A stretch of 34,983 nt of DNA from an uncultured Nitrospina sp. (GCA_964570185.1 CAZMXD010000003.1:1-34983); one strand, 5' to 3'. Shown: positions 1-34,919, counted from the first letter of the stretch. A program made the numbers and translations. The notes: generated by a model from the letters alone, not told the origin.

Positions 1-1373
1 CCACGAAAGTTGTCAATTTCGCGAGAAAGTAAGTAAATCCGCATATCTTTTTCAATATCCTGAGAAAGAAAAAACTTTGTCAACAATGACTCATTAAACG
101 TCGAGGCAACTTCTGCAACAAAAATTGTGTAATCTGAATACAAATAAGGCTGGTTTTTTCTTGAATAAAGGGAATGCATGGAATGGCCAGCTTCGTGAGC
201 CAAGGTGTAAACACTATTAATATTATCCTCTTTATAGTTCATAAGAATAAACGGGTTTGAATCGTAGCAACCAGAAGAATAAGCGCCGCTTCTTTTCCCC
301 TTATTTTCGTAACGATCCGTCCATCTATCTTGCAAAAGACCTTTGCTCATCAGATCAGTATATTCTACGCCTAAAGGTTGCAGGGCTGTCTTGATTTTTT
401 CAACAGCGTCTTCATAAGGCATGTGCCATTTAATATTTTTGACTAGCGGCACAGAACAGTCATAGATATGAAGATCCTCAAGGTCTAACAAACGTTTTCT
501 TAAATTAAAATACTTATAAAGAGGCTTTAGGTTTTCATGGACTGATTCAATTAAATTATCATAAACCTCTGTATTAATATTTTCAGAAAATAGCGCTTTA
601 TCTCGATAACCCCCGTAATTTCTGGATCGCGAATAAAATAAATCTTTTTTCACGCTCGAGGAAAGCAAAGAAGAATAAGTAAAACGATGCGATTGATAAC
701 CCTTGTAATAAGTATGAAAGGCATCTTTTCTTAACCTGCGATTATAGCTTTGCATCAGACTCTGAAAATTACCATGAGTTAAAGTTATTCGCTCACCACT
801 TTCACCCTCTATTTCTCCAAGTTGCAGATCTGCATTATCTAACATATCAAATGCATCCCTCGCGGCCCTCCCCATTTCTCCGGATGCCGCAAGAAGTTTT
901 TCTTCCTTATCTGTCAAGGTGTGTTCGCGATAACGTAAAATCTGCTCAAGGTGAAATTTATAAAATAGCATGTCCTTCTCTTTTAAAAACCCTGATATTT
1001 TCTCTTGCGAAATATCCATGATCTCGGGACGTATAAAGCTCGATGCGCTGCCTGCTTCGTTGAGTAGTCTCATCACCTTTTCAAAATTTTTCTGGTAAAA
1101 ACTATTGGTTTTATCTTCGTCATTTTTCAAATGCGCAAAGGTATATAGTTTTTCAATCCGTCTCGAAAAACTTATATCAAACTCAATACATTCTTTAAGC
1201 TTTAAATACGATTGTGAAAGCGTACCTTGAAAACTGGCATATTGCGATAAATCGGCTTCTAATAAATTAAAATCATTTTCCCAATCTTCGTTAGATGGAT
1301 AAAGCCCTGACAAATCCCACTGGGATTGTTCGGGAATCTCATCTCGTGTCAGAGTATCTGTTTTAGCATCCAT
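1..1373 (-). CDS. pepF: Oligoendopeptidase F (M3B metallopeptidase), N-terminal ~457 codons; gene runs off the left edge
   Basis: Absent from the ORF track because it is open at the window edge. Hand translation of the minus strand from ATG (1373-1371) gives MDAKTDTLTRDEIPEQSQWDLSGLYPSNEDWENDF... Near the edge it reads ...NSVYTLAHEAGHSMHSLYS (HEAGH zinc motif encoded about 174-200). No in-frame stop down to position 1. Confidence 0.8.
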   Translation of the reverse strand, partial: MDAKTDTLTRDEIPEQSQWDLSGLYPSNEDWENDFNLLEADLSQYASFQGTLSQSYLKLKECIEFDISFSRRIEKLYTFAHLKNDEDKTNSFYQKNFEKVMRLLNEAGSASSFIRPEIMDISQEKISGFLKEKDMLFYKFHLEQILRYREHTLTDKEEKLLAASGEMGRAARDAFDMLDNADLQLGEIEGESGERITLTHGNFQSLMQSYNRRLRKDAFHTYYKGYQSHRFTYSSLLSSSVKKDLFYSRSRNYGGYRDKALFSENINTEVYDNLIESVHENLKPLYKYFNLRKRLLDLEDLHIYDCSVPLVKNIKWHMPYEDAVEKIKTALQPLGVEYTDLMSKGLLQDRWTDRYENKGKRSGAYSSGCYDSNPFILMNYKEDNINSVYTLAHEAGHSMHSLYSRKNQPYLYSDYTIFVAEVASTFNESLLTKFFLSQDIEKDMRIYLLSREIDNFR

Positions 1374-1415: not shown

Positions 1416-4067
1416 TTAACATAAAGCTTGTTCTATAGTTTTCAAATGAATTTGAAGCTTTGCCTGCTTTTCAGAAAGAGCTGTCTTCCTTTGTTCATCT
1501 TTTTCGATAACTTCAGCAGGCGCTTTCTTTACGAAATTCGGGTTGGATAGTTTCTTACTTAGAAATATGAGGTCTTTTTCAATTTTTTTCAACTCTTTTT
1601 CTACCCGATTATGTTCTTCTTGAAAATCCATCATCCCTTCGAGTGGAATAATCAGGTCCATACCGCCTAAAACCGAAGAGGCGGATACCTTGGGTTTTTC
1701 GATATTTGGACCCGTTTCTAACTCCTCAACACGGGCTAATTCCTTTATATACAAGCTCTGATCTTGTAAAGTTTTTTGTATTTCATCGTTCTGGGTCTTA
1801 ACTAAAACCTTTAATTTTAATCCAGGGTTTAGATTCATCTCGCCACGAATATTTCGAATTCCCGTAATGACTTCCATTACTAATGTCATTTCTTTTTCTA
1901 CAAATTCATGAATATGCGATTTCCTAAACTCAGGAAACGCACTAACCATAATACTCTCTCCATCCTGAGGCAACTTTTGCCAAATCTCTTCTGTAATAAA
2001 TGGCATAAACGGATGCAAAAGCTTAAGCGCAGAATCTAGAACATGTATCAACACATTTTGTGCGGCAATCCTTTCAGGCCCAGGATTTGACAATTTAGAT
2101 TTAGCAAGCTCTATATACCAGTCGCAATATTCGTTCCAAATAAATTTATAAATAGTCAAAGCAACTTCATTAAAGCGAAATGCTTCAAGGGATTCATTTA
2201 CCTCTTTCGTTGCCCGGTTTAACCGACTCAAAATCCAGCGATCAGCCGTGGAAAAACTGGCTTTTTCATCCAGTAAGCACGAGCCTTTATAATCATCCAG
2301 ATTCATGAAAACAAATCGCGAGGCATTCCAAAGTTTATTACAGAAGTTGCGATAACCTTCGATACGATCCTCAGCCAATTTGATGTCTCTTCCCTGTGCC
2401 GCAAAAGCCGCAAGAGTGAAACGTAAAGCATCCGTTCCGTATTGCTCCATCACTTCCAAAGGATCAATCACATTGCCTTTCGTCTTACTCATTTTCTGTC
2501 CTTCTGCATCGCGTATTAGGGCATGAATATAAACATCGCGAAAGGGGACTTCACCCATAAACTTGATACCCATCATGATCATTCGCGCAACCCAGAAAAA
2601 AAGGATATCGAATCCAGTGCAAAGAACCGATGTCGGATAAAAATATTGCAGGCTTTCCGTTTTTTCCGGCCAACCTAAAGTCGAAAAAGGCCAGAGAGCA
2701 GAACTGAACCAAGTGTCTAACACATCCGTTTCCTGAATCAAGTTTTTTGATGCACAATACGAGCAAGAATCAGGGGCTTCCCTTGCCACCACTATTTCAC
2801 CACAAGTTTGGCAATTCCAAGCTGGAATCTGATGTCCCCACCAAATTTGCCGAGAAATACACCAGTCGCGTATATTTTCCATCCATTCAAAATAGGTATT
2901 TTCCCAAAACTTCGGAACAATTTTTATGCTGCCATCTCGCACCGCTTTCATAGCAGGCTCGGCGAGAGGCTTAGCTTTCACAAACCATTGCTTAGATAAA
3001 TAAGGCTCTACCACTGTTCGACATCGATAGCAATGGCCCACGGAATGGTTTAAATCTTCAATTTTTACCAGTACCCCAGAATCTTTTAAATCACCAACTA
3101 ATTTTTTTCTGCATTCAAACCTGTCCATACCCTCATAAGTAGAACCAGCTAGGGAATTCATAGATCCATCGGGGTTCATAACATTTATAGTTTCCAACTG
3201 ATGTCGTTTTCCTAATTCAAAGTCGTTTGGGTCATGGGCAGGCGTCACTTTCAGCGCACCAGTACCAAAAGTTGTATCCACATAGTTATCTTCGATCAAT
3301 GGGATTTCACGATTCAAAATAGGTAGGACAAGATTTGCGCCTTTAAACTGATGATAGCGCTCATCACTAGGGTTCACTGCAACTGCTGTATCGCCCAACA
3401 TAGTTTCGGGTCGCGTAGTGGCTATAATTAGAAAAGCTTCACTCTCTTTAAAAGGATATCTTAAATGATATAAATGCCCTGGCTCTTCTTTATGTTCTAC
3501 TTCCAAGTCAGAAAGCGCAGTATGGCAACGCGGACACCAGTTGATAATATAGTCGCCCTTATAAATAAGACCTTCTTCATATAAAGTAACGAAAACTTCC
3601 CGAACCGCTTTCGACAAACCCTCATCCATTGTAAAACGGTCGCGCTCCCAGTCCAACGAGCACCCGAGTTTTTGCAATTGCTTATTGATAGTACCGCCAA
3701 ATTCATCTTTCCATTCCCAAATACGTTCGATAAAGGGTTGCCGACCTAGCTCCTGCCTGTTGGTTCCTTCTTGGTGTAGTTGCCTTTCGACTACATTCTG
3801 AGTAGCAATTCCAGCATGATCAGTACCTGGCTGCCACAAAGCATTAAAACCTTGCATTCTTTTCCAACGAATAAGGATGTCTTGAAGGGTGTTATTGAAA
3901 GCATGACCGATATGCAACCGGCCGGTAATATTGGGCGGGGGAATGACTATTGAAAAAGCAGGACACTTCCTGGTTTCATCTGCATGGAAAAAATTCTTTT
4001 CTTCCCAAAATCGCCCCCAGCGTTTTTCCACTTCACTGGGTTCGTATTGTTTATCTAATTGAATCAT
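1416..4067 (-). CDS. valS: Valine--tRNA ligase
   Basis: 883-aa ORF with class I aaRS motifs PPPNITGRLHIGH (HIGH) and KMSKTKGN (KMSKS). Has a CP1 editing-domain-sized insert and the C-terminal coiled coil typical of ValRS. Confidence 0.95.
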   Translation of the reverse strand: MIQLDKQYEPSEVEKRWGRFWEEKNFFHADETRKCPAFSIVIPPPNITGRLHIGHAFNNTLQDILIRWKRMQGFNALWQPGTDHAGIATQNVVERQLHQEGTNRQELGRQPFIERIWEWKDEFGGTINKQLQKLGCSLDWERDRFTMDEGLSKAVREVFVTLYEEGLIYKGDYIINWCPRCHTALSDLEVEHKEEPGHLYHLRYPFKESEAFLIIATTRPETMLGDTAVAVNPSDERYHQFKGANLVLPILNREIPLIEDNYVDTTFGTGALKVTPAHDPNDFELGKRHQLETINVMNPDGSMNSLAGSTYEGMDRFECRKKLVGDLKDSGVLVKIEDLNHSVGHCYRCRTVVEPYLSKQWFVKAKPLAEPAMKAVRDGSIKIVPKFWENTYFEWMENIRDWCISRQIWWGHQIPAWNCQTCGEIVVAREAPDSCSYCASKNLIQETDVLDTWFSSALWPFSTLGWPEKTESLQYFYPTSVLCTGFDILFFWVARMIMMGIKFMGEVPFRDVYIHALIRDAEGQKMSKTKGNVIDPLEVMEQYGTDALRFTLAAFAAQGRDIKLAEDRIEGYRNFCNKLWNASRFVFMNLDDYKGSCLLDEKASFSTADRWILSRLNRATKEVNESLEAFRFNEVALTIYKFIWNEYCDWYIELAKSKLSNPGPERIAAQNVLIHVLDSALKLLHPFMPFITEEIWQKLPQDGESIMVSAFPEFRKSHIHEFVEKEMTLVMEVITGIRNIRGEMNLNPGLKLKVLVKTQNDEIQKTLQDQSLYIKELARVEELETGPNIEKPKVSASSVLGGMDLIIPLEGMMDFQEEHNRVEKELKKIEKDLIFLSKKLSNPNFVKKAPAEVIEKDEQRKTALSEKQAKLQIHLKTIEQALC

Positions 4068-4202: not shown

Positions 4203-5417
4203 TTAACTTCGTTTAATTTTGTCAATTTCTTCGCGAATCACGGATCGGGCAATATCTGGAACCATTTCTCTAACAACCTCTCTAACAATTTTTATAATTA
4301 TTGCTGACATCCCAGAAACCTCTTTCTGCAACGAAGTATCCAACGATTTTTCCAGAATTTGACAAACCTGCTCTCCGGTAACCTGAATAAAACGATCATT
4401 ATTTTCAAAGTCCATTTCCTTAAAATGTGAATCCTTATAACGGGCTGAACCAAGGGAGGACGGGTCGGTCATGGAATTAATATTTTCTTGAATTTCATCA
4501 GCAGTATGAGGACGTCTTTCTTTATTAGAAAAAGCACTTGGAGCCATTCTTTCTAGAAGATCTTCTGGCTCCGGAACAATGCTTTGTAAATTCGATATCT
4601 CTGATTCTTTCATTTCGGAATTAGCCGCCATTTTTGATTCCCCAGCCACAATTTCTTTAAAAGCCGAATCTAGATCCTCGAGGTTCTCCGCCTTTCTGTC
4701 CTGCACCTCTGCATAAACTTCAAAGTCATCCTCAAAACTTTGTTCTTCTTTCACATTCTCTTCGGCTTCAAAAGCAGGTTGAGCAACCTCCCTTTCCTTG
4801 TGAAATTCAACCGCTTGAATCGTCTGTTCCAACATATCTGTTTCGGGGACAACAGGCTCTTCCTTCACTATTTCGTCTTTTTCCTGCATAAAGCTATCCG
4901 TTTTTTCTGTCAAATCATTCATCTCGGTGGAGTCGACAGAGAGTTTTTCAACAGATTCCAACAACTCTTCAAGGCTGGGTTCTTCATCTAATTCCTCATC
5001 TTCATCAGGAATCCTTTCAGACAGAGCAGGTTCATTTTCGTCAGTAGTATCGTCTTCCATGACCCTTGTTACCATTTGAACTATATTATCGGATTTGAAA
5101 GGTTTGGAAATATGATTTTCTGCCAAGCATTCCTTAAACCGTACTTCGTCAAAATCTTCAAAGTCACTGGCAAGAAGCAGTACTTTTATACTTGCCAGAT
5201 CAGGAGAACTTTTTATTTTCTTGCTCAACTCGAATCCAGTGAGCCCGGGCATATCAACATCCGCCAAAACTATATCTGGTTTAAAATATGGAATTTTATC
5301 AAAAGCCTCTTGCCCATTTCCTATACCTTCTACTTCTACATCCTCATTTGCAAAAGCCATTGCAACAATTTTCTGAATCGTAATACTATCGTCAGCAACT
5401 AGAATTCTTAGTGCCAT
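4203..5417 (-). CDS. Response-regulator receiver protein with long acidic linker and short conserved C-terminal helical segment
   Basis: N-terminus MALRILVADDSITIQK...DIVLADVDMPGLTGFEL...KPF is a CheY-like receiver. Roughly residues 120-330 are extremely Glu/Asp rich. The C-terminus reads ...IVREVVREMVPDIARSVIREEIDKIK. No recognisable DNA-binding output domain. Confidence 0.8.
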   Translation of the reverse strand: MALRILVADDSITIQKIVAMAFANEDVEVEGIGNGQEAFDKIPYFKPDIVLADVDMPGLTGFELSKKIKSSPDLASIKVLLLASDFEDFDEVRFKECLAENHISKPFKSDNIVQMVTRVMEDDTTDENEPALSERIPDEDEELDEEPSLEELLESVEKLSVDSTEMNDLTEKTDSFMQEKDEIVKEEPVVPETDMLEQTIQAVEFHKEREVAQPAFEAEENVKEEQSFEDDFEVYAEVQDRKAENLEDLDSAFKEIVAGESKMAANSEMKESEISNLQSIVPEPEDLLERMAPSAFSNKERRPHTADEIQENINSMTDPSSLGSARYKDSHFKEMDFENNDRFIQVTGEQVCQILEKSLDTSLQKEVSGMSAIIIKIVREVVREMVPDIARSVIREEIDKIKRS

Positions 5418-25778: not shown

Positions 25779-26033
25779 GTAATAGTTGTAGACAGGCTTA
25801 TATTGACTTTAAATATTTTACTCCATAAAAATCAATTGCCTACAAATTTTTTTGGGATTCCGGGTTTTCAATGTTATCTTTAATTACCTTGTATTCTCTG
25901 CGGATTTTCCAATAGAAAACTCAAGCATTCTGTGAATATTAAAACGAGTGTTTTGAGGAAATAAAAAATAAATAAATTCTGGGGAAACCCGTATTCTCAT
26001 CGGACCCCCGCCCACTTTGAAAGGTTTTGCTTA

Positions 26034-29993: not shown

Positions 29994-30770
29994 TTAGTCT
30001 TTTATGCCCTCAAAATTTTCAACAACTTTCTCTTTTAATGTTAGTTTCCCATCTTTAAAATATTTCTCGGATTTTGTTTTTCCATCTTTAGACCAAACAA
30101 CCCATAGCCCGTCTTCTTTTCCATTTTTATACTGACCTATATTTGCCCTAAACCCATTTGAGTGCCAGTCTTTATAGGGACCGTCTAAGTTTCCATCAAA
30201 GAAATGTGCTTCGATATGTTTTTTCCCGTTATCCCATCTCCACTCTGTGCGAAGTCCGTTTTCTATTCCATTTTTGTAATATGTTTCCACATCTTTTTTT
30301 CCGTTCTCAAACCATTTAATACGAACCCCATTTTCTATTCCTTTCTCATAATGCCTCTCTTCATCTTTTTTACCCGACTTATACCACCAAGTTTGAACAC
30401 CATTTAGCTCTCCGTCTAAATAATTTATATCCTGTCTTTTTTCTCCGGAAATATACCAATTACTGGAAAGGCCATTTTCTTTTCCGTCGATGAAAGGGGT
30501 CACAGACATTTTCTTGCCGTTTTGATACCACGAAGATATAGGGCCATTTAATAATCCATCCTTGTAATATCCTTTTGCTTGTATCTTTCCATTTTTATAC
30601 CAAACGGTTACCAGTCCCTCCTCTTTTCCATTCTTGTAATGGGTTTCTTTTTTCAACTTCCCGTTGTCCCAGTATTCCCTGTCGACTTCTTCTTTTTCCC
30701 CATAAACAGAATCACAAAGCAAAAACAGAAAAGTGAGTAAAAATAAAAAGATGTATGTTTTCGTTTTCAT
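29994..30770 (-). CDS. Secreted MORN-variant repeat protein (YwqK-like repeat family)
   Basis: Signal peptide MKTKTYIFLFLLTFLFLLCDSVYG. About ten ~23-aa repeats of the form W-Y-x-N-G-K-K-x-x-E-x-x-Y-K-N-G-x-x-x-G. Confidence 0.8.
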   Translation of the reverse strand: MKTKTYIFLFLLTFLFLLCDSVYGEKEEVDREYWDNGKLKKETHYKNGKEEGLVTVWYKNGKIQAKGYYKDGLLNGPISSWYQNGKKMSVTPFIDGKENGLSSNWYISGEKRQDINYLDGELNGVQTWWYKSGKKDEERHYEKGIENGVRIKWFENGKKDVETYYKNGIENGLRTEWRWDNGKKHIEAHFFDGNLDGPYKDWHSNGFRANIGQYKNGKEDGLWVVWSKDGKTKSEKYFKDGKLTLKEKVVENFEGIKD

Positions 30771-30928
30771 ACATTGAGAATACCGTATTTACTTAAAAAT
30801 AAGAACGCTTAAGGTTAAATCAACTCGAAACGGCTGACCCGTTGGATTTGTTCAGAGAAATTCAGGGGAAATAAAAAGAAAAAATATTTGGGGAAATCCC
30901 GTAAGTATTTGACGACTAAGAAATTAAA

Positions 30929-30977
30929 GTTGCAGGACCGGATCGAACCGCTGACAAGAGGAATTTTAGTTCTTCGT
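30929..30977 (-). pseudogene. Decayed tRNA 3'-half-like remnant (T-arm, variable region and possible anticodon arm), same orientation as the tRNA at the right edge
   Basis: The minus strand reads ...AAGAACTAAAATTCCTCTTGTCAGCGGTTCGATCCGGTCCTGCAAC. The T-loop TTCGATC is intact but the T-stem pairs poorly, and there is no 5' acceptor strand or D-arm. In the T-arm/variable region, 20 of 24 positions match 34956-34983 in a gap-free hand alignment. Confidence 0.45.
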
Positions 30978-31126
30978 TCGATGGTTAAGGTATTGTTTTT
31001 TAATATTTAGTTTAGTCGGTTTTCGTGTGCGCATTATGTGTATACGGTATTTAAACTCCCTACTTACAAAAGAAACCAGTAATAAGTTCTCCCATTATTA
31101 TTCGACTTTGAGTTCCATTAAGTTTT

Positions 31127-31156
31127 TTGCTATAACAAACCATCCTTAAGTATAGC
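31127..31156 (+). promoter_or_regulatory. Possible sigma-70 promoter TTGCTA-N18-TATAGC just upstream of repeat-module copy 1
   Basis: Sequence is TTGCTAtaacaaaccatccttaagTATAGC. Weak -10 element and long spacer. Confidence 0.25.
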
Positions 31157-31166
31157 TCTAATTAGA

Positions 31167-31314
31167 GTTCTTGCTCAAACTGGATTCACGGTCCAACGAA
31201 TGTAGCAGTGGTTACTGGCCCGTTCGCATTTTGGAGTGTTGTATGTGGTTTGCCTTAATAAAAGTAGAAACCGAAACAAAACGAGATGACTCTGTTGAGT
31301 TGTCTCTTTTTTTT
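31167..31314 (+). repeat. 5' module copy 1: conserved ~70-nt leader, ATG at 31243, 24 conserved codons, 10-bp hairpin (31283-31306) and T8
   Basis: 14 mismatches in 134 gap-free positions against 32538-32671 (hand alignment). Lies upstream of the DUF2628-like gene. Confidence 0.85.
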
Positions 31315-31366
31315 GGAGGGAGGCAATATAAAACCGAATGCATATTAAATATGAGGAGGACAAAAT

Positions 31367-31660
31367 ATGGCCAGCCAGATTTATATTAGGCATGAACAAA
31401 GTGGCATTACCAAAAATGGGTATTATGGATTTAGTTGGACATATTTTTTTTGGGGGTGGTTAGTACCTATTATCAGAGGGGAAGTTGGGATTGGTGCCCT
31501 TCATCTGCTTTTTTCAATATTCACACTTGGTATTTGGCAAATCATAGTATGTTTTTTATATAACAAACAATACATGACACGCATGCTTACTACAGGGTGG
31601 GTACTTGCAGGAAGCGAAGAAGAAAATAGAAATGCAAAATTTGCGCTTAATATAGTTTAA
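31367..31660 (+). CDS. DUF2628-like small membrane protein (97 aa)
   Basis: Strong RBS (GAGGAGGacaaaatATG). The G-F-S-W-T motif is followed by two TM helices. Paralogous to the N-half of 34007..34561. Confidence 0.7.
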   Translation: MASQIYIRHEQSGITKNGYYGFSWTYFFWGWLVPIIRGEVGIGALHLLFSIFTLGIWQIIVCFLYNKQYMTRMLTTGWVLAGSEEENRNAKFALNIV

Positions 31661-31698
31661 CTTAATTATAGAAGAACCATTAAAAAAGGAATCAAGGC

Positions 31699-32247
31699 AT
31701 GAAATGGTTTATAAAAGCCGTATTTCATAATTATGCCAATTTCAAAGGGAGGGCACGACGTAAAGAATATTGGATGTTTTACTTATTTTATTTCCTCTTT
31801 CTCGTGTTGGCGACTATAGCTGATAGTGTTATTTATGATCTTAACGTGGAGGACATAAACGATCCAGAAGTTTTCTATCCACTTCAGACTATTTTCATGC
31901 TCGCAATGATTATACCTTGTATAAGCCTTGGTGCCAGGAGATTGCACGATATAGGCAAAAGTGGTTGGCAACAGTTACTATTACTAATACCTCTTATTGG
32001 TAGTATTTTGGTTCTAATTTTTACATTGCGGGATAGCGATTACCAAGAAAATAAATATGGGCCTTCTCCAAAATCAATTACAACGTCTAAAGATGTGGCA
32101 AGCCTCAAGGGCTCTGTAGATGGCATAGCCGAATCACACCAATATTCTGCGCCTGATCAGACCAACATGTTTTGCGGAAAATGTGGAAAAAAGAATTCTA
32201 GAGACAATAAATTTTGCACACAATGCGGGCAAACTTTTGCTTCATAA
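31699..32247 (+). CDS. DUF805 (YhaH/YhaI-type) inner-membrane protein fused to a C-terminal zinc ribbon
   Basis: Has KGRARRKEYWMF..., GARRLHDIGKSGW and ENKYGPSP, the DUF805 signatures as I recall them. The C-terminal CGKCGKKNSRDNKFCTQCG is a CxxC-N10-CxxC ribbon. Confidence 0.75.
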   Translation: MKWFIKAVFHNYANFKGRARRKEYWMFYLFYFLFLVLATIADSVIYDLNVEDINDPEVFYPLQTIFMLAMIIPCISLGARRLHDIGKSGWQQLLLLIPLIGSILVLIFTLRDSDYQENKYGPSPKSITTSKDVASLKGSVDGIAESHQYSAPDQTNMFCGKCGKKNSRDNKFCTQCGQTFAS

Positions 32248-32266
32248 CATAACAGCTAAGTACCAC

Positions 32267-32319
32267 TTGGAGCGTTGCATTTGGTTTGCTTCAAAAAAAT
32301 AGAAACCGAAACCACAAAC
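32267..32319 (+). repeat. 5' module copy 2 (truncated and degenerate: ATG changed to ATT, early stop, no hairpin)
   Basis: TTGGAGCGTTGCATTTGGTTTGCTTCAAAAAAATAGAAACCGAAACCACAAAC aligns with 31231-31283 and 32596-32648. Lies upstream of the small TM gene at 32336. Confidence 0.7.
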
Positions 32320-32335
32320 TACAGGTGATAAACAG

Positions 32336-32521
32336 ATGGAAGAATTTGAAGGTTTTCTATATTTTATTTGTTTTGTTGTTCTTCCCCTTGCATGGAAACC
32401 TTCCAGAAAAGCAATAGGACTATTAAATATAATTGTAGGCGCAATTGTATCACTGACGGGAATAGGAATTATAATTGGAATTCCATTAATGTTTTTTGGC
32501 GGAATATTATTATTTATGTAA
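32336..32521 (+). CDS. Small two-TM membrane protein (61 aa)
   Basis: Hydrophobic ORF with AGGTGA 8 nt upstream of the ATG. Confidence 0.5.
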   Translation: MEEFEGFLYFICFVVLPLAWKPSRKAIGLLNIIVGAIVSLTGIGIIIGIPLMFFGGILLFM

Positions 32522-32531
32522 ATCTATTCTT

Positions 32532-32679
32532 CTTCTAGCTCAAACTGGATTCACGTTCCAACGAATGTAGCAGTGGTTATTGACCCGTTCACATTTTGGA
32601 GTGTTGTATGTGGTTTGCTTCTAAAAAAATAGAAACTAAAACCAAACGAGATGACTCTGTCGAGTTATCTCGTTTTTTT
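32532..32679 (+). repeat. 5' module copy 3: the same leader, ATG at 32608, 24 conserved codons, hairpin (32648-32671) and T7. Here the ORF continues into the protease
   Basis: See copy 1. An in-frame TGA upstream of the ATG shows that the conserved leader is non-coding in this copy. Confidence 0.85.
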
Positions 32680-33981
32680 GTTTGCGGGGTTTTTCTATTA
32701 TCCTTTCTGACTGCCTGTACCACCACTAACCAAATCAGCAACACTTCTTCTTCATTGCAAATCAACACAGGTGATGTAGCAACAGGAACTGGTTTTCTTT
32801 TTAGTTCTTCGGATTATGTCATCACCAGTTACCACGTTGTTCATGGTGCAAAATCCATTAAGGTTCGATTGGTTAATGGAGAAAGAATCGATGCCACTAT
32901 TTCTCTTAAAGATACCAATAACGATATTGCCATCCTGAAACTGTCCCACTCTCCCACATCAAGACAGAACATTATTGTGCTTGGAGACAGTTCATCAGTC
33001 AAAACAGGTGACAGGGTATTTACTTACGGGTTTCCATTGGTGGACCTGTTGGGAGCTGCAGAACCCCGATACTCGGAAGGATTTATTAATTCTCTCAGTG
33101 GTATCTCCAACGACCCAAGATTGTTCCAAGTCAGTATTCCCATCCAACCGGGAAACAGCGGGGGTCCCGTGTTCAATGAAAAAGGAGAACTCATCGGGAT
33201 TGCTACCAGTTCCATTGATGCTGACAAAACAAAGAAAGTATTTGGTTCGAGTCCTCAGAACGTGAACTTCGCCATCAAATCATCTTATATCAAATCCCTG
33301 TTACCTGGTTTACCCGATGCTTTCATAAGAGATAAAGGGATCGTGGTGGTTCCTGTTGAAGAGGTTGGGTTTAAGGAAAGAGTAAAAAACGACATTGTAC
33401 TGGTTGAAGCAACTCCTGAATTTAAACCAACTATGGTCAAAAGAGATTATGAAGATGAAGGACGACTAAGAGAGCAAAGAGAACGACAGGCAAAAGAAGA
33501 AGAAAGGTTAAGAAGAGAGAAAGAAATTGCTGAACGGGAACGAGAAATTTTAGAAAGAGAACGACAGGCAAAAGAAGAAGAAAGGTTAAGAAAAGAGAAA
33601 GAAATTGCTGAGCGGGAACGAGAAATTTTAGAAAGAGAACAACAGGTTGAAACAGAAGAACAACTTAGAAGAGAAAGAGAACTTGCTGAACGAGAACAAG
33701 AACTTCGTGATAGGGAACGACAACTCAAAGAGAAAAAAAGATTGGGAAGTTTTACCACAAGAGAGCGAGGGGTTCAAAAGTGGAAAACAAATTATTCTCA
33801 AGCAGCACAAGATGAATGCTTCCGAGAAGCAAAATTAAAATATGGAAAGAGTAAAGAATTAAGACCTCAAGAGGAACTGCCTCAAGGAGTAGATTTTCTT
33901 GGGAATTTTGATGCAGTGCCTTTAACACCGGAAGAAGTAAAGTGTTTGAGTGATAGAGTACTTAGAGAATCGATTAGATGA
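32608..33981 (+). CDS. Trypsin-like (S1/Trypsin_2) serine protease lipoprotein with charged tandem-repeat coiled coil and C-terminal Cys-containing domain
   Basis: Lipobox FLLSFLTAC. Catalytic triad contexts are VITSYHVV (His), NDIAILKL (Asp) and GNSGGPVF (Ser). A REKEIAEREREILERERQAKEEERLR repeat region follows. Alternative TTG start at 32596. Confidence 0.8.
   Translation: MWFASKKIETKTKRDDSVELSRFFVCGVFLLSFLTACTTTNQISNTSSSLQINTGDVATGTGFLFSSSDYVITSYHVVHGAKSIKVRLVNGERIDATISLKDTNNDIAILKLSHSPTSRQNIIVLGDSSSVKTGDRVFTYGFPLVDLLGAAEPRYSEGFINSLSGISNDPRLFQVSIPIQPGNSGGPVFNEKGELIGIATSSIDADKTKKVFGSSPQNVNFAIKSSYIKSLLPGLPDAFIRDKGIVVVPVEEVGFKERVKNDIVLVEATPEFKPTMVKRDYEDEGRLREQRERQAKEEERLRREKEIAEREREILERERQAKEEERLRKEKEIAEREREILEREQQVETEEQLRRERELAEREQELRDRERQLKEKKRLGSFTTRERGVQKWKTNYSQAAQDECFREAKLKYGKSKELRPQEELPQGVDFLGNFDAVPLTPEEVKCLSDRVLRESIR
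33481..33714 (+). repeat. Three tandem 78-nt (26-codon) repeats inside the protease gene; the first two are near-identical and the third has diverged
   Basis: Units at 33481-33558, 33559-33636 and 33637-33714. Units 1 and 2 differ at only two positions by eye (aagaGgag vs aagaAaag, and gctgaAcgg vs gctgaGcgg). Confidence 0.85.
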
Positions 33982-34006: not shown

Positions 34007-34561
34007 ATGGCAAGCAATACAATTCATTTTAAAAATCCTCATACGGGTGAAATCCGCGAAGCACCAGCAGGTTTTTCTTGGACCGTATTGTTCTTTGGGT
34101 TCATTCCACCACTTTTCAGATCCGACTGGAAAAGTGCGTGTCTTATTTTCCTTTTAGGATTTGTTGTCACTGCCATATCATGGGACGCACCTGCGCCAAT
34201 GGCTTTTTGGGTATATTTCACTTTTGCTTGTTTTTATAATAAATTGTATATCAAGCAACTTGTTCAAAAAGGGTATCAAGCTTATGGGGTTGAACGCGGT
34301 GTTTTGGCTCATGAGCTGTTCTTTAATAAACTTGATGGTTTAGTTCCAGTTTTAAAGGAACCTCAAACTAACCAAAAATCTCAGGAACCAGACCCTAAAA
34401 ATGAAGGCTCTAAGGACAAAAAAAAACAGCCGACCAGGGAATGGCCAGCTGTTTTTACTATTGAAGATAGATTAAGAAAATTGCAAGAACTTAAAGAAAA
34501 CAATTTAATTAACGATGAAGAATATAATCAGAAAAAAGAAAAGTTGCTCGAAGAGCTTTAG
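34007..34561 (+). CDS. DUF2628-like membrane domain fused to a charged linker and C-terminal SHOCT domain
   Basis: RBS AAAGGGAGAGATG. G-F-S-W-T motif plus TM helices. The C-terminal LRKLQELKENNLINDEEYNQKKEKLLEEL is a SHOCT-type tail. Confidence 0.75.
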   Translation: MASNTIHFKNPHTGEIREAPAGFSWTVLFFGFIPPLFRSDWKSACLIFLLGFVVTAISWDAPAPMAFWVYFTFACFYNKLYIKQLVQKGYQAYGVERGVLAHELFFNKLDGLVPVLKEPQTNQKSQEPDPKNEGSKDKKKQPTREWPAVFTIEDRLRKLQELKENNLINDEEYNQKKEKLLEEL

Positions 34562-34566
34562 TGCCT
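34460..34566 (+). repeat. 107-nt direct repeat (copy A) covering the SHOCT tail, the stop codon and 5 nt beyond it
   Basis: 11 mismatches in 107 gap-free positions against 34813-34919. The last 23 nt, including TAGTGCCT, are identical. Confidence 0.85.
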
Positions 34567-34644: not shown

Positions 34645-34914
34645 ATGGGTTTTCCAGAGATAATAATCATACTAGTTATTATCACGCCGTTCGCTTTGAT
34701 ATTTTATTTTGGTTTTTATATGGTAAAAAAACGTAGAAAAAATTTCCAAATGAATCAGGAGAATATAAGTGCTGCAGAAATAGGCAATAAGAGTGCAGTT
34801 ACGCAAACATCCATTGAAGATAAATTAGGGCAATTGAACGAACTTAAAGAAAAAAATTTAATTAATGATGAAGAATACAATAAGAAAAAAGAAAAATTGC
34901 TCGAAGAGCTTTAG
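34645..34914 (+). CDS. Single-TM protein with C-terminal SHOCT domain (89 aa)
   Basis: RBS GGAGGG. N-terminal TM helix IIIILVIITPFALIFYFGFYMV. C-terminal LGQLNELKEKNLINDEEYNKKKEKLLEEL. Confidence 0.7.
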   Translation: MGFPEIIIILVIITPFALIFYFGFYMVKKRRKNFQMNQENISAAEIGNKSAVTQTSIEDKLGQLNELKEKNLINDEEYNKKKEKLLEEL

Positions 34915-34919
34915 TGCCT
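34813..34919 (+). repeat. 107-nt direct repeat (copy B) covering the second SHOCT tail
   Basis: See copy A. Confidence 0.85.

Follow-up and report, generated by a model that had tools for sequence, protein, structure and literature searches.

A candidate portable promoter/leader cassette with a terminator hairpin inside its leader reading frame, located upstream of unrelated accessory genes in Nitrospinaceae

Introduction

The upstream homology boxes of Borrelia are conserved 5' regions of lipoprotein paralogues that include the promoter, the ribosome-binding site and the signal-peptide segment, and they are thought to promote recombination. They are located on spirochaete plasmids, serve paralogous lipoprotein families and, to our knowledge, contain no intrinsic terminator. 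Here we describe a repeated 5' module that is present as two full copies and a remnant in a 34,983-nt stretch of DNA from an uncultured Nitrospina sp. (GCA_964570185.1 CAZMXD010000003.1:1-34983), the whole of which is referred to as the window. Each instance of the module, called a unit, carries the beginning of a short leader open reading frame (ORF) that encodes an intrinsic-terminator-like hairpin, and is followed by one or more genes that we call its cargo. The Nitrospinaceae are the chief oceanic nitrite oxidizers, almost all of them are uncultured, and we know of nothing reported on their gene regulation. The searchable literature yielded no description of the element in Nitrospina.

Three described systems come closest to the module in their logic. 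In the pyrBI operon of E. coli, termination at an intrinsic terminator is prevented when a ribosome translates the leader ORF (pyrL) through it (PMC5021804; PMC4824070, citing Roland et al. 1988), and in the pil1 locus, mutants in the leader ATG and ribosome-binding site, in the stop codon and in the terminator behave as a leader-translation model predicts (PMC3894217). Putative mobile promoters, on the other hand, were defined by Nijveen, Matus-Garcia and van Passel (2012) as sequences of at least 50 nt with at least 80% identity that lie upstream of non-homologous genes in one genome, and they may reach into coding regions and carry regulatory RNAs (PMC3575422). Judging from the sequence and by analogy with these systems, the units are probably portable promoter/leader modules of the "promoter reuse" kind (PMC3575422). 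We also lean, with less confidence, toward the stronger proposal that they form a portable promoter/leader cassette that would act as a translation-gated attenuator like those of pyrBI and pil1.

Results

A repeated 5' module encodes a terminator-like hairpin

A repeat finder detected a two-copy direct repeat in the window, 31168-31315 versus 32533-32680 (148 nt, gap-free, 89% identity), with a distance of 1,365 bp between the two copies in direct orientation, and an nhmmer search matched copy 1 with E = 1.9e-52. A third, partial copy was found at 32267-32299 as a 33-nt repeat family (D4, 82-88%) and was extended to 32266-32314 by an nhmmer profile search (E = 5e-9); together with the alignment, these searches define a decayed remnant, copy 2, at 32267-32320. 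All copies lie on the plus strand. The two full copies and the partial third described in the initial annotation are therefore real, with coordinates there one base off. The putative mobile promoter definition also fits this locus, since the 89% identity extends over 148 nt and the genes that follow the two full copies have nothing in common, one encoding a 97-aa membrane protein and the other a trypsin-like protease.

Direct reading of the sequence bore out most of what had been described for the individual copies. The full copies share an ATG, at 31243 and 32608, each preceded by a Shine-Dalgarno (SD) sequence, GGAG, and a 6-nt spacer, and in copy 3 an in-frame TGA (32581-32583) lies 5' of the ATG. 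The next 24 codons are common to both copies (MWFALIKVETETKRDDSVELSLFF in copy 1 versus MWFASKKIETKTKRDDSVELSRFF in copy 3), beyond which the sequences are unrelated. Copy 1 (31168-31315), which forms the body of unit 1 with its 5' untranslated region (UTR) hairpin, SD, leader start and terminator, opens a leader ORF of 48 codons (31243-31389) that overlaps the next gene, its stop lying 20 nt past the ATG of that gene at 31367. Copy 3 (32533-32680) is the body of unit 3, and its leader forms the first 24 codons of a trypsin-like lipoprotein protease (32608-33981) whose reading frame continues, as had been claimed, into a lipoprotein signal with the lipobox FLTAC and then a Trypsin_2 domain (Pfam). 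No other ATG, GTG or TTG occurs between the leader ATG and the lipobox cysteine. Copy 2 retains an SD-like TTGGAG, has ATT in place of the ATG and has lost the hairpin and the T-run. It precedes a 61-aa ORF (32336-32521), and copy 3 begins 11 nt past the stop of that ORF.

A terminator scan showed that leader codons 13-24 (KRDDSVELS(R/L)FF) encode an intrinsic-terminator-like hairpin and T-run in both full copies. In unit 1 this element occupies 31279-31314 (stem 31283-31306, loop TGTT, T8 at 31307-31314) and has a minimum free energy (MFE) of -14.4 kcal/mol; in unit 3 it occupies 32644-32679 (stem 32644-32675, 14 pairs, loop TGTC, T7 at 32673-32679) with an MFE of -19.3 kcal/mol, its last three pairs being formed with the first Ts of the T7, and it fits the core pattern of the family, ACGAGNTGACTCNNNNGAGTTNTCTC. 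The stems in the window thus have 10-14 bp and T-runs of T7-8. Because the last 12 shared codons are an intrinsic terminator, the mechanistic reading of the module shifts to a leader-ORF attenuator. As in a leader-peptide attenuator, the leader frame of both window copies is equipped with an SD and a start codon, and units of the family have a terminator-like hairpin with a T-run ahead of the structural gene.

Units form a family associated with Nitrospinaceae

The hairpin core was used as a pattern to scan one genome per species (GTDB). It was found in 9 genome stretches, seven of which belong to Nitrospinaceae, Ca. Nitromaritima, Nitrospina or Nitrospinales, with three of these seven coming from two contigs of one single-cell genome. 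The two remaining stretches are L019 (13.5 kb), from a metagenome-assembled genome (MAG) labeled Alteromonadaceae, and L022 (2.7 kb), from a MAG labeled Ca. Thioglobus. The cargo gene of L022 recurs on the Nitrospinaceae-like contigs L028, L055, L105 and L118, which makes mis-binning likelier than transfer, and we suspect that both L019 and L022 are mis-binned. The same pattern occurred in more than 119 marine metagenome stretches among the matches listed, and a pattern scan of viral contigs gave no match. The statement that the module belongs to no known Rfam, IS or MITE family is in keeping with further searches: the window matched no Rfam family at its gathering score, hits at E <= 10 over 30700-32900 were confined to noise, the plasmid and phage collections held no BLAST match to unit 1, and a tRNA/tmRNA scan of the window was empty.

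Aligned units have sharp edges beyond which the flanks diverge, and they fall into four subtypes with 5' parts of differing sequence, named MRT, MRP, MQV and MWF. A T-run of exactly 7 nt is present in 81 of 106 units, and the hairpins have a median MFE of -17.5 kcal/mol. After the T-run the family has a semi-conserved tail, GTTTTTGG(T/G)GAA, followed by divergence. In unit 1, GGAGGGAGG stands at 31315-31323 directly after the T8 and matches the purine block found at this place across the family. Since no start codon follows it at the spacing of an SD, it is probably a relic of that block or of a second SD. The latter idea was partly borne out, as an SD-like tetramer occurs just past the T-run in 33 of 107 tails versus 15 in a control window. 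Loci with two or three units 0.9-2.4 kb apart also exist elsewhere (L103, L108, L129 and L130). On balance we favor, with moderate confidence, a Nitrospinaceae-wide family of self-contained 5' expression cassettes with a unit length of about 110-190 nt.

The occurrence of the family bears directly on the possibility, named in the initial annotation as what would refute its proposal, that the window merely holds a scar of local duplication. The window copies are in direct orientation and 1,365 bp apart, as such a scar confined to the locus could produce. However, more than 130 further instances lie ahead of 59 different proteins on many Nitrospinaceae contigs, further copies are found in both genomes and metagenomes, and synteny varies at the module. 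This explanation is refuted.

The leader has the properties of a translated reading frame

An ATG or GTG lies exactly 13 codons ahead of the CGA codon of the hairpin in 104 of 114 unique units, with no insertions or deletions across the four subtypes. Frame 0 is open over 39 nt in 93 of 96 units, while stops are found in frame 1 of 78 and in frame 2 of 51 of the 96. An SD-like motif is located no more than 16 nt 5' of the start in 75 of the 114 units. The hairpin and T-run correspond to codons 13-24 in every unit, and the leader stop is always past the T-run. In 22 of 55 cases this stop either overlaps the start of the cargo (ATGA) or directly adjoins it, compared with 9 and 7 cases for the two control frames (Fisher p = 0.0004); when related cargo was collapsed, the corresponding numbers were 16 of 46 versus 7 and 7 (p = 0.015). 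In the fused lipoproteins, the leader ATG is the only possible start.

These regularities are difficult to accommodate if the units are instead multi-copy genes for trans-acting small RNAs (sRNAs) of about 100 nt, each with its own promoter, a Rho-independent terminator and a variable 5' "seed", in which the SD, the ATG and the ORF would be incidental or secondary. Such an explanation would account for the conservation pattern, in which conservation is highest in the 3' hairpin and U-tract and the 5' parts divide into subtypes, and for a promoter-like box and a strong terminator that bound a short transcript of about 100-180 nt. Default termination is moreover probable (PMC4824070), so that a small RNA would accumulate, and attenuator-derived RNAs can act in trans, as indicated for rnTrpL by one source (PMC6614838). 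It leaves unexplained, though, why the position of the ATG or GTG, the frame and the 39-nt spacing are kept across subtypes of divergent sequence, why a co-oriented gene follows at close range in essentially all cases, why the leader stop falls preferentially on the cargo start, and why fused alleles start only at the leader ATG. We therefore regard a family of sRNA genes as quite unlikely.

Cargo genes are diverse and mostly co-oriented

Cargo was surveyed for 103 unique instances that are followed by 300 nt or more of sequence. The leader is in frame with a long ORF in 23 of them; in the other 80 it ends 1-20 codons past the T-run, with unrelated tails. For these 80 non-fused units, the start of a co-oriented ORF is located a median of 28 nt past the T-run (up to 100 nt in 64 and up to 200 nt in 74), and an ORF on the opposite strand takes the place of cargo in a single case.

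Altogether the cargo comprises 59 distinct proteins, 41 of which have a signal- or transmembrane-like N-terminus; secreted repeat proteins, lipoproteins and nucleases make up most of the set. A Pfam census of 50 cargo proteins returned Sel1 (8), pentapeptide (4) and MORN_2 (2) domains, single cases of FGE-sulfatase, trypsin, DnaJ, NT5C, GDSL lipase and the Rap1a immunity protein, and domains of a nuclease or defense type (Z1, DUF3427, PD-(D/E)XK, HNH and ResIII). The set is an assortment of accessory genes rather than a pathway.

In the window, the cargo of unit 1 (31367-32247) consists of a 97-aa membrane protein (31367-31660) and a DUF805 and zinc-ribbon protein (31699-32247). The first of these genes has its own GAGGAGG 7 nt 5' of its ATG, and both were called identically by gene callers on TARA contigs identical to the window. 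The label "DUF2628-like" that had been attached to the gene at 31367 was not sustained, as the 97-aa protein has no Pfam match. This protein is distantly paralogous to the 184-aa SHOCT protein encoded at 34007-34561, whose N-terminal half it resembles (28% identity, E = 3e-9) and which likewise has no Pfam match to DUF2628.

The contig encoding protein P0015 (JGI 3300072015) carries a 154-aa ORF of the Phage_integrase family, in divergent orientation 116 nt upstream of a unit-led protease, which is followed by a Sel1 gene. The layout of this contig is reminiscent of an integron, although it was seen only once and the recombinase gene is truncated.

Base pairing is kept where the encoded peptide changes

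The search pattern fixed the stem; the informative copies are those found through the profile or through protease homology. Among such copies, the stem of L144 has a G-C pair replaced by A-T, which changes KR...SR to KQ...SC (R to Q and R to C) and keeps the pairing. A-T is replaced by G-C in the stems of L031 and L050, the A-T pair at the stem base by T-A in L070 together with G.T by A-T, and A-T by G.T in L040. In L084 (~953-1036, minus strand) and L017 (~5305-5346, minus strand) the whole hairpin is inverted (KRDNSTESSRFF) with the stem intact save for one A.C mismatch. The inverted palindrome changes the peptide from KRDDSVELSRFF to KRD(N/H)STESSRFF, that is, four residues are altered and the stem is kept. 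Together, these changes suggest that it is the hairpin, more than the encoded peptide, that is under selection. L054 and L059, on the other hand, have degenerate hairpins.

Inverted palindromes were also seen in proteins P0009, P0018-P0020, P0024 and P0025, where the loop is reverse-complemented and a G.U pair has become an A.C mismatch. The inversion resembles a product of DNA-level quasi-palindrome template switching.

An alternative in which the 24 residues are themselves the functional entity, either as a peptide or as a shared N-terminal targeting or pro-sequence, with the hairpin a coincidence of codon choice, can be judged against these changes. Compensatory stem changes and inversions alter residues and keep pairing, the residues ahead of the hairpin vary freely among subtypes (MRTTWKPLSNETK, MQVTSTQLKIKTK, MWFTSIKVETETK), and a perfect stem of about 12 bp with a T7 in more than 100 copies is no accident of codon usage. 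In roughly three quarters of instances, furthermore, the ORF terminates shortly past the T-run with unrelated tails. What speaks for a conserved peptide is that start codon, frame and length are conserved, that codon position 2 is the least variable, and that 41 of the 59 cargo proteins are exported or membrane proteins, some of them true in-frame fusions. We consider this alternative very improbable.

The 120 protease homologues that we compared were chosen by protease similarity and independently of the hairpin pattern. About half of them have an ordinary short lipoprotein signal (MSGNAKFRWFLL...TAC) and no module, and a few begin with MRTTWKPLRKV..., a module start without the hairpin. Alleles of the protease thus differ at their 5' ends, which carry no module, a hairpin-less module or the full module.

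Derivatives of units without the hairpin were also found in L130 (~5205-5260, minus strand, and ~1839-1894, plus strand) and in L113 (~313-367, minus strand). In one of the L130 copies the leader start passes straight into a signal peptide (MRTTWKTISNKTKPLTFLLSLTFLFLF), with the junction in the motif AAACCAAAC, which is common to the leader (ETKR) and to a frequent cargo start, ATGAAAACCAAAC (MKTKP...). This suggests that the fusion may have been mediated by microhomology.

A promoter-like box marks the 5' edge of units

The homology of copy 1 with its relatives extends about 45 nt further 5' than the repeat in the window, up to an extended -10-like box, TGCTATAAC (TG-C-TATAAC), at 31128-31136. 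The assignment of this putative promoter element is by match to the consensus. The box is also the 5' edge of conservation with other units of the MW type, where it reads TGATATAAA in L071 and L144 and TGGTATAAA in L129. In the MRT subtype, the commonest one (leader MRTTW...), TGATATA(A/C)T is located 32-34 nt 5' of the ATG in 34 of 46 units. The box is TGATAGGAT in the MRP subtype, TGGTATAAT about 82 nt upstream in the MQV subtype, and TG(A/G/C)TATAA about 115 nt upstream in the MWF subtype, to which the window's units belong. An extended -10-like box is therefore found, as a consensus match, at the 5' edge of conservation in the alignments of all four subtypes.

Between box and leader, the window's subtype has a predicted 5' UTR hairpin. 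In unit 1 (31176-31252; MFE and centroid folds) its 3' arm contains the SD (GGAG, 31233-31236) and the ATG at 31243, and in unit 3 (32541-32617; centroid fold, z = -3.8) an anti-SD sequence, GTTCCAA, pairs with TTGGAGT, which includes the SD GGAG at 32598-32601. A consensus fold of ten MWF-type units has 27 pairs, among them those between ACUCCA and the SD region UGGAGU, and 96% of cells are paired versus 36-51% in slid controls. In L144 the hairpin has lost its apex but retains the anti-SD:SD base. Based on these folds, sequestration of the SD by the 5' hairpin is plausible for the window's subtype. It cannot be a general mechanism, however, because the UTR of the MRT subtype is only about 26 nt long.

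Gene content changes at units

The closest relative of the window is L144, whose protease shares 95% identity with that of the window. The genes of L144 are arranged as LRR, a 61-aa gene (minus strand), LPP20, a 134-aa gene and LPP20/DUF4384, then the promoter and a single unit, the protease, Sel1 and two SHOCT genes. In the window, LRR and the 61-aa gene (minus strand) are followed by a MORN_2 gene (minus strand), the promoter and unit 1, then by the 97-aa gene, the DUF805 gene, the copy 2 remnant and a 61-aa ORF, and finally by unit 3, the protease and two SHOCT genes. Besides the segment between the copies, the LPP20 block, Sel1 and MORN_2 are each confined to one of the two, so that there are differences in the genes to either side as well.

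The window's promoter region (31118-31196) is 84% identical to that of L144. The window segments closest to the single unit of L144 are the 5' end of copy 3, with 93% identity over 29 nt, and its 3' part taken together with the protease, with 93.7% over 1,045 nt; the body of copy 1 is only 83% identical to the L144 unit, and the 1,365-bp segment between the window copies is absent from L144. Read in this way, the extra 1,365 bp of the window is an insertion that starts with a foreign unit body and has unit sequence at both ends. Such a pattern would be the expected product of recombination at the unit, either by integration of a circle consisting of a unit and genes or by unequal exchange. The initial annotation had likened the layout to the Borrelia boxes or to 5'-conserved recombination cassettes, or alternatively proposed a shared cis-regulatory RNA. 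Given the 59 unrelated cargo proteins, the breakpoints relative to L144 and the swapped 5' ends, each of these readings is right in part; the terminator had been overlooked.

Such breakpoints also raise the question of whether the unit is simply a selfish or structural repeat, MITE-like or resembling the attC recombinase site, with no regulatory role and with promoter, SD and terminator as by-products. Many copies precede unrelated accessory genes, gene content breaks at the unit, contig ends are enriched at units (26 observed versus 17.1 expected, p = 0.017), the hairpin inversions point to DNA-level events at a palindrome, and a truncated, divergent Phage_integrase gene sits beside a unit-led protease on one relative's contig. 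Yet the unit edges have no terminal inverted repeats (TIRs) or target-site duplications, and no integrase or transposase was found in the window, which is ordinary chromosome with ValRS, ABC transporter, aroDE, FliD and LeuCD-like genes and CsrA/FliW downstream. The near-perfect stem of about 12 bp with its T7 has the geometry of a terminator and lacks a GTTRRRY core, and the strict orientation of the cargo, the fixed spacing between ATG and hairpin and the open frame would be left unexplained. We therefore think it unlikely that the unit is a repeat of this kind.

A translation-gated attenuator as the favored explanation

The explanation that we favor, a promoter/leader cassette with a translation-gated terminator, would work as follows. 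A unit comprises, in order, an extended -10-type box, a 5' UTR, an SD and start codon, a leader ORF containing the terminator-like hairpin (a stem of about 12 bp and U7), a short U/G-rich tail and the start of the co-oriented cargo; the UTR is short in the commonest subtype, whereas that of the window's subtype is predicted to fold into a long hairpin that engages the SD. Transcripts starting at the unit promoter would by default halt at the hairpin. A ribosome that translates the leader close behind RNA polymerase would cover the 5' arm of the hairpin, so that no terminator could form and transcription could read through into the cargo, and the same ribosome would finish on or beside the cargo start codon, allowing translational coupling. 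Where leader and cargo are fused, as in the window's protease, the leader would serve as the N-terminus of the cargo's signal peptide. For the window this would mean that unit 1, with its promoter, leads three small membrane-protein genes, that copy 2 is a dead remnant, and that unit 3 is the resident unit, fused to the protease. Since the unit is repeated, it would also provide a patch of homology at which accessory genes can be inserted, lost or given a new 5' end.

A number of observations weigh against this explanation. We infer the start of transcription at the box, termination at the hairpin, translation of the leader and translation-gated read-through from sequence. Ribosomes of E. coli fail to suppress a terminator located in the first ~100 bp of an ORF unless the polymerase pauses (PMC4824070); early-ORF terminators being efficient without pausing, the units should be "off" by default (PMC4824070). 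No polymerase pause site or regulatory-codon run was found in the units, neither a run of any one codon nor a conserved pause hairpin was seen in the MRT subtype, and any role of the predicted MWF 5' hairpin is putative. In the ten MWF units, changes in that hairpin are one-sided and compatible with wobble pairing, with no covariation above that of shuffled controls. The codon-position entropies of the MRT subtype (0.61/0.33/0.64 bits) are only weakly periodic and provide no argument for a conserved peptide. The upstream region of copy 3, where other MW units have TGnTATAA, contains no promoter box, because the C-terminus of the 61-aa ORF is encoded there.

The evidence from the hairpin is likewise mixed. 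Most of the sampled stems are invariant because the search pattern fixed them, and the covariation comes from few diverged copies. Among the 120 protease homologues, about 62 have N-termini derived from the module, and only 28 of these are canonical, with 6 inverted and 28 variant; the DNA of four variant alleles (L011, L146, L147 and L148) contains eroded hairpins. Our reading of these data is that pairing is maintained in stand-alone units and that, once fused into a coding sequence, the hairpin is free, or is pushed, to decay.

Other repeats in the window

A tandem 78-nt repeat in three copies (100/89/73% identity; 33476-33748) encodes a charged coiled-coil, ERLRREKEIAEREREILERE..., in the C-terminal region of the protease, and variation in its copy number may account for part of the length range of the protease homologues (236-457 aa). 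Downstream of the protease, a 107-nt direct repeat with 90% identity (34460-34566 and 34813-34919) spans the SHOCT domains of the adjacent genes at 34007-34561 and 34645-34914, which indicates that these neighbors were recently duplicated or gene-converted. A 37-nt direct repeat (GGAAATAAAAA...GGGGAAA(C/T)CCGTA, family D6, 78% identical) is located at 25957-25993, in the gap between a radical-SAM gene (minus strand) and an aconitase-like gene (plus strand), and at 30867-30903, in the gap between the MORN_2 gene (minus strand) and unit 1. It may be a common promoter or operator element, or a chance similarity.

Discussion

If the favored explanation is correct, much of the accessory gene pool of the Nitrospinaceae, including secreted repeat proteins, lipoproteins, proteases and nucleases, would be under one compact and portable control unit. 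A terminator gated by leader translation would be a regulatory logic open to study in a heterologous host. The explanation would also account for alleles of one gene with different 5' ends and signal peptides, and the family would offer an unusually clear case of "promoter reuse" in nature, one whose anatomy is defined. A practical point concerns annotation, as gene callers at units currently fuse the leader to the cargo or call spurious ORFs of 25-50 aa.

More speculatively, the units may in addition be integron-like without an integrase, providing a single translation-gated switch for at least 50 unrelated accessory genes of the envelope, secreted-repeat and defense kinds together with a homology handle for capturing and swapping genes and for creating new 5' ends and signal-peptide N-termini. 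A switch of this kind could sense, for instance, how closely ribosome and polymerase are coupled, or could respond to a signal for nascent-peptide arrest in the conserved leader. We regard this extension as a doubtful one at present.

Several classes of element were considered and set aside. In a trp-type attenuator, alternative structures compete, and here the 5' hairpin and the terminator fold as independent helices with no competing structure in MFE, centroid and consensus folds. A riboswitch or other cis-acting RNA of the Rfam type was judged unsupported on the grounds that there is no Rfam match, that the 5' regions are subtype-specific, that the apex can be deleted (L144) and that covariation is lacking. 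As for an integron attC site, the near-perfect stem of about 12 bp, the 4-nt loop and GTTTTTT come without R''-L''/L'-R' bulges, as judged by inspection with no dedicated attC model run. For a MITE, Correia element or REPIN, the terminator is the only inverted repeat, the flanks contain no TIRs or duplications and the window no transposase. Finally, a RiPP precursor was rejected because the tails comprise 1-20 residues with no recurring Cys/Ser/Thr pattern, the boundary is the T7 terminator tract and the cargo genes do not encode maturation enzymes.

Among known systems, short intergenic hairpin repeats such as Correia elements, ERIC, REPIN and attC resemble the units in that they affect the expression of neighbors or delimit co-oriented cassettes. 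The units differ from them in being oriented with respect to the cargo and in containing a fixed-frame ORF and a canonical terminator, and no TIRs, target duplications, RAYT, transposase or integrase were found. The likeness to the Borrelia upstream homology boxes, which is an analogy only, consists in a conserved 5' region with expression signals and first codons ahead of mostly exported proteins; unlike those boxes, most Nitrospinaceae units are not fused to their cargo. Putative mobile promoters, in turn, are a generic bioinformatic category of typically pair-sized families, whereas the units have a fixed anatomy and form a far larger family.

The closest likeness in regulatory logic is to the leader-ORF attenuators. 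Like pyrBI, the units have an SD, an ATG and a short leader ORF that encloses a hairpin and U-tract, and pyrBI terminates by default with no antiterminator hairpin (PMC5021804, PMC4824070). However, pyrL is a single locus with a 44-codon leader and UTP-sensitive pause sites that serves one biosynthetic operon, while the Nitrospinaceae units have 24 conserved codons, many copies, unrelated accessory genes and their own promoter box, and are sometimes fused to the cargo. In pil1 and pil3 of Streptococcus gallolyticus, read-through of a stem-loop terminator depends on leader translation reaching or passing the hairpin (PMC3894217), as is proposed here. These are two pilus loci in which phase-variable GCAGA repeats shift the leader frame; the units have no such repeats, and in all of them the leader frame continues past the hairpin. 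Both leader-ORF attenuation and the reuse of promoters are known already. What appears to be new is that one defined promoter/leader/terminator cassette, divided into subtypes, stands over dozens of unrelated accessory genes in one family, with in-frame captures that create new signal-peptide N-termini and with gene-content breakpoints at the unit itself.

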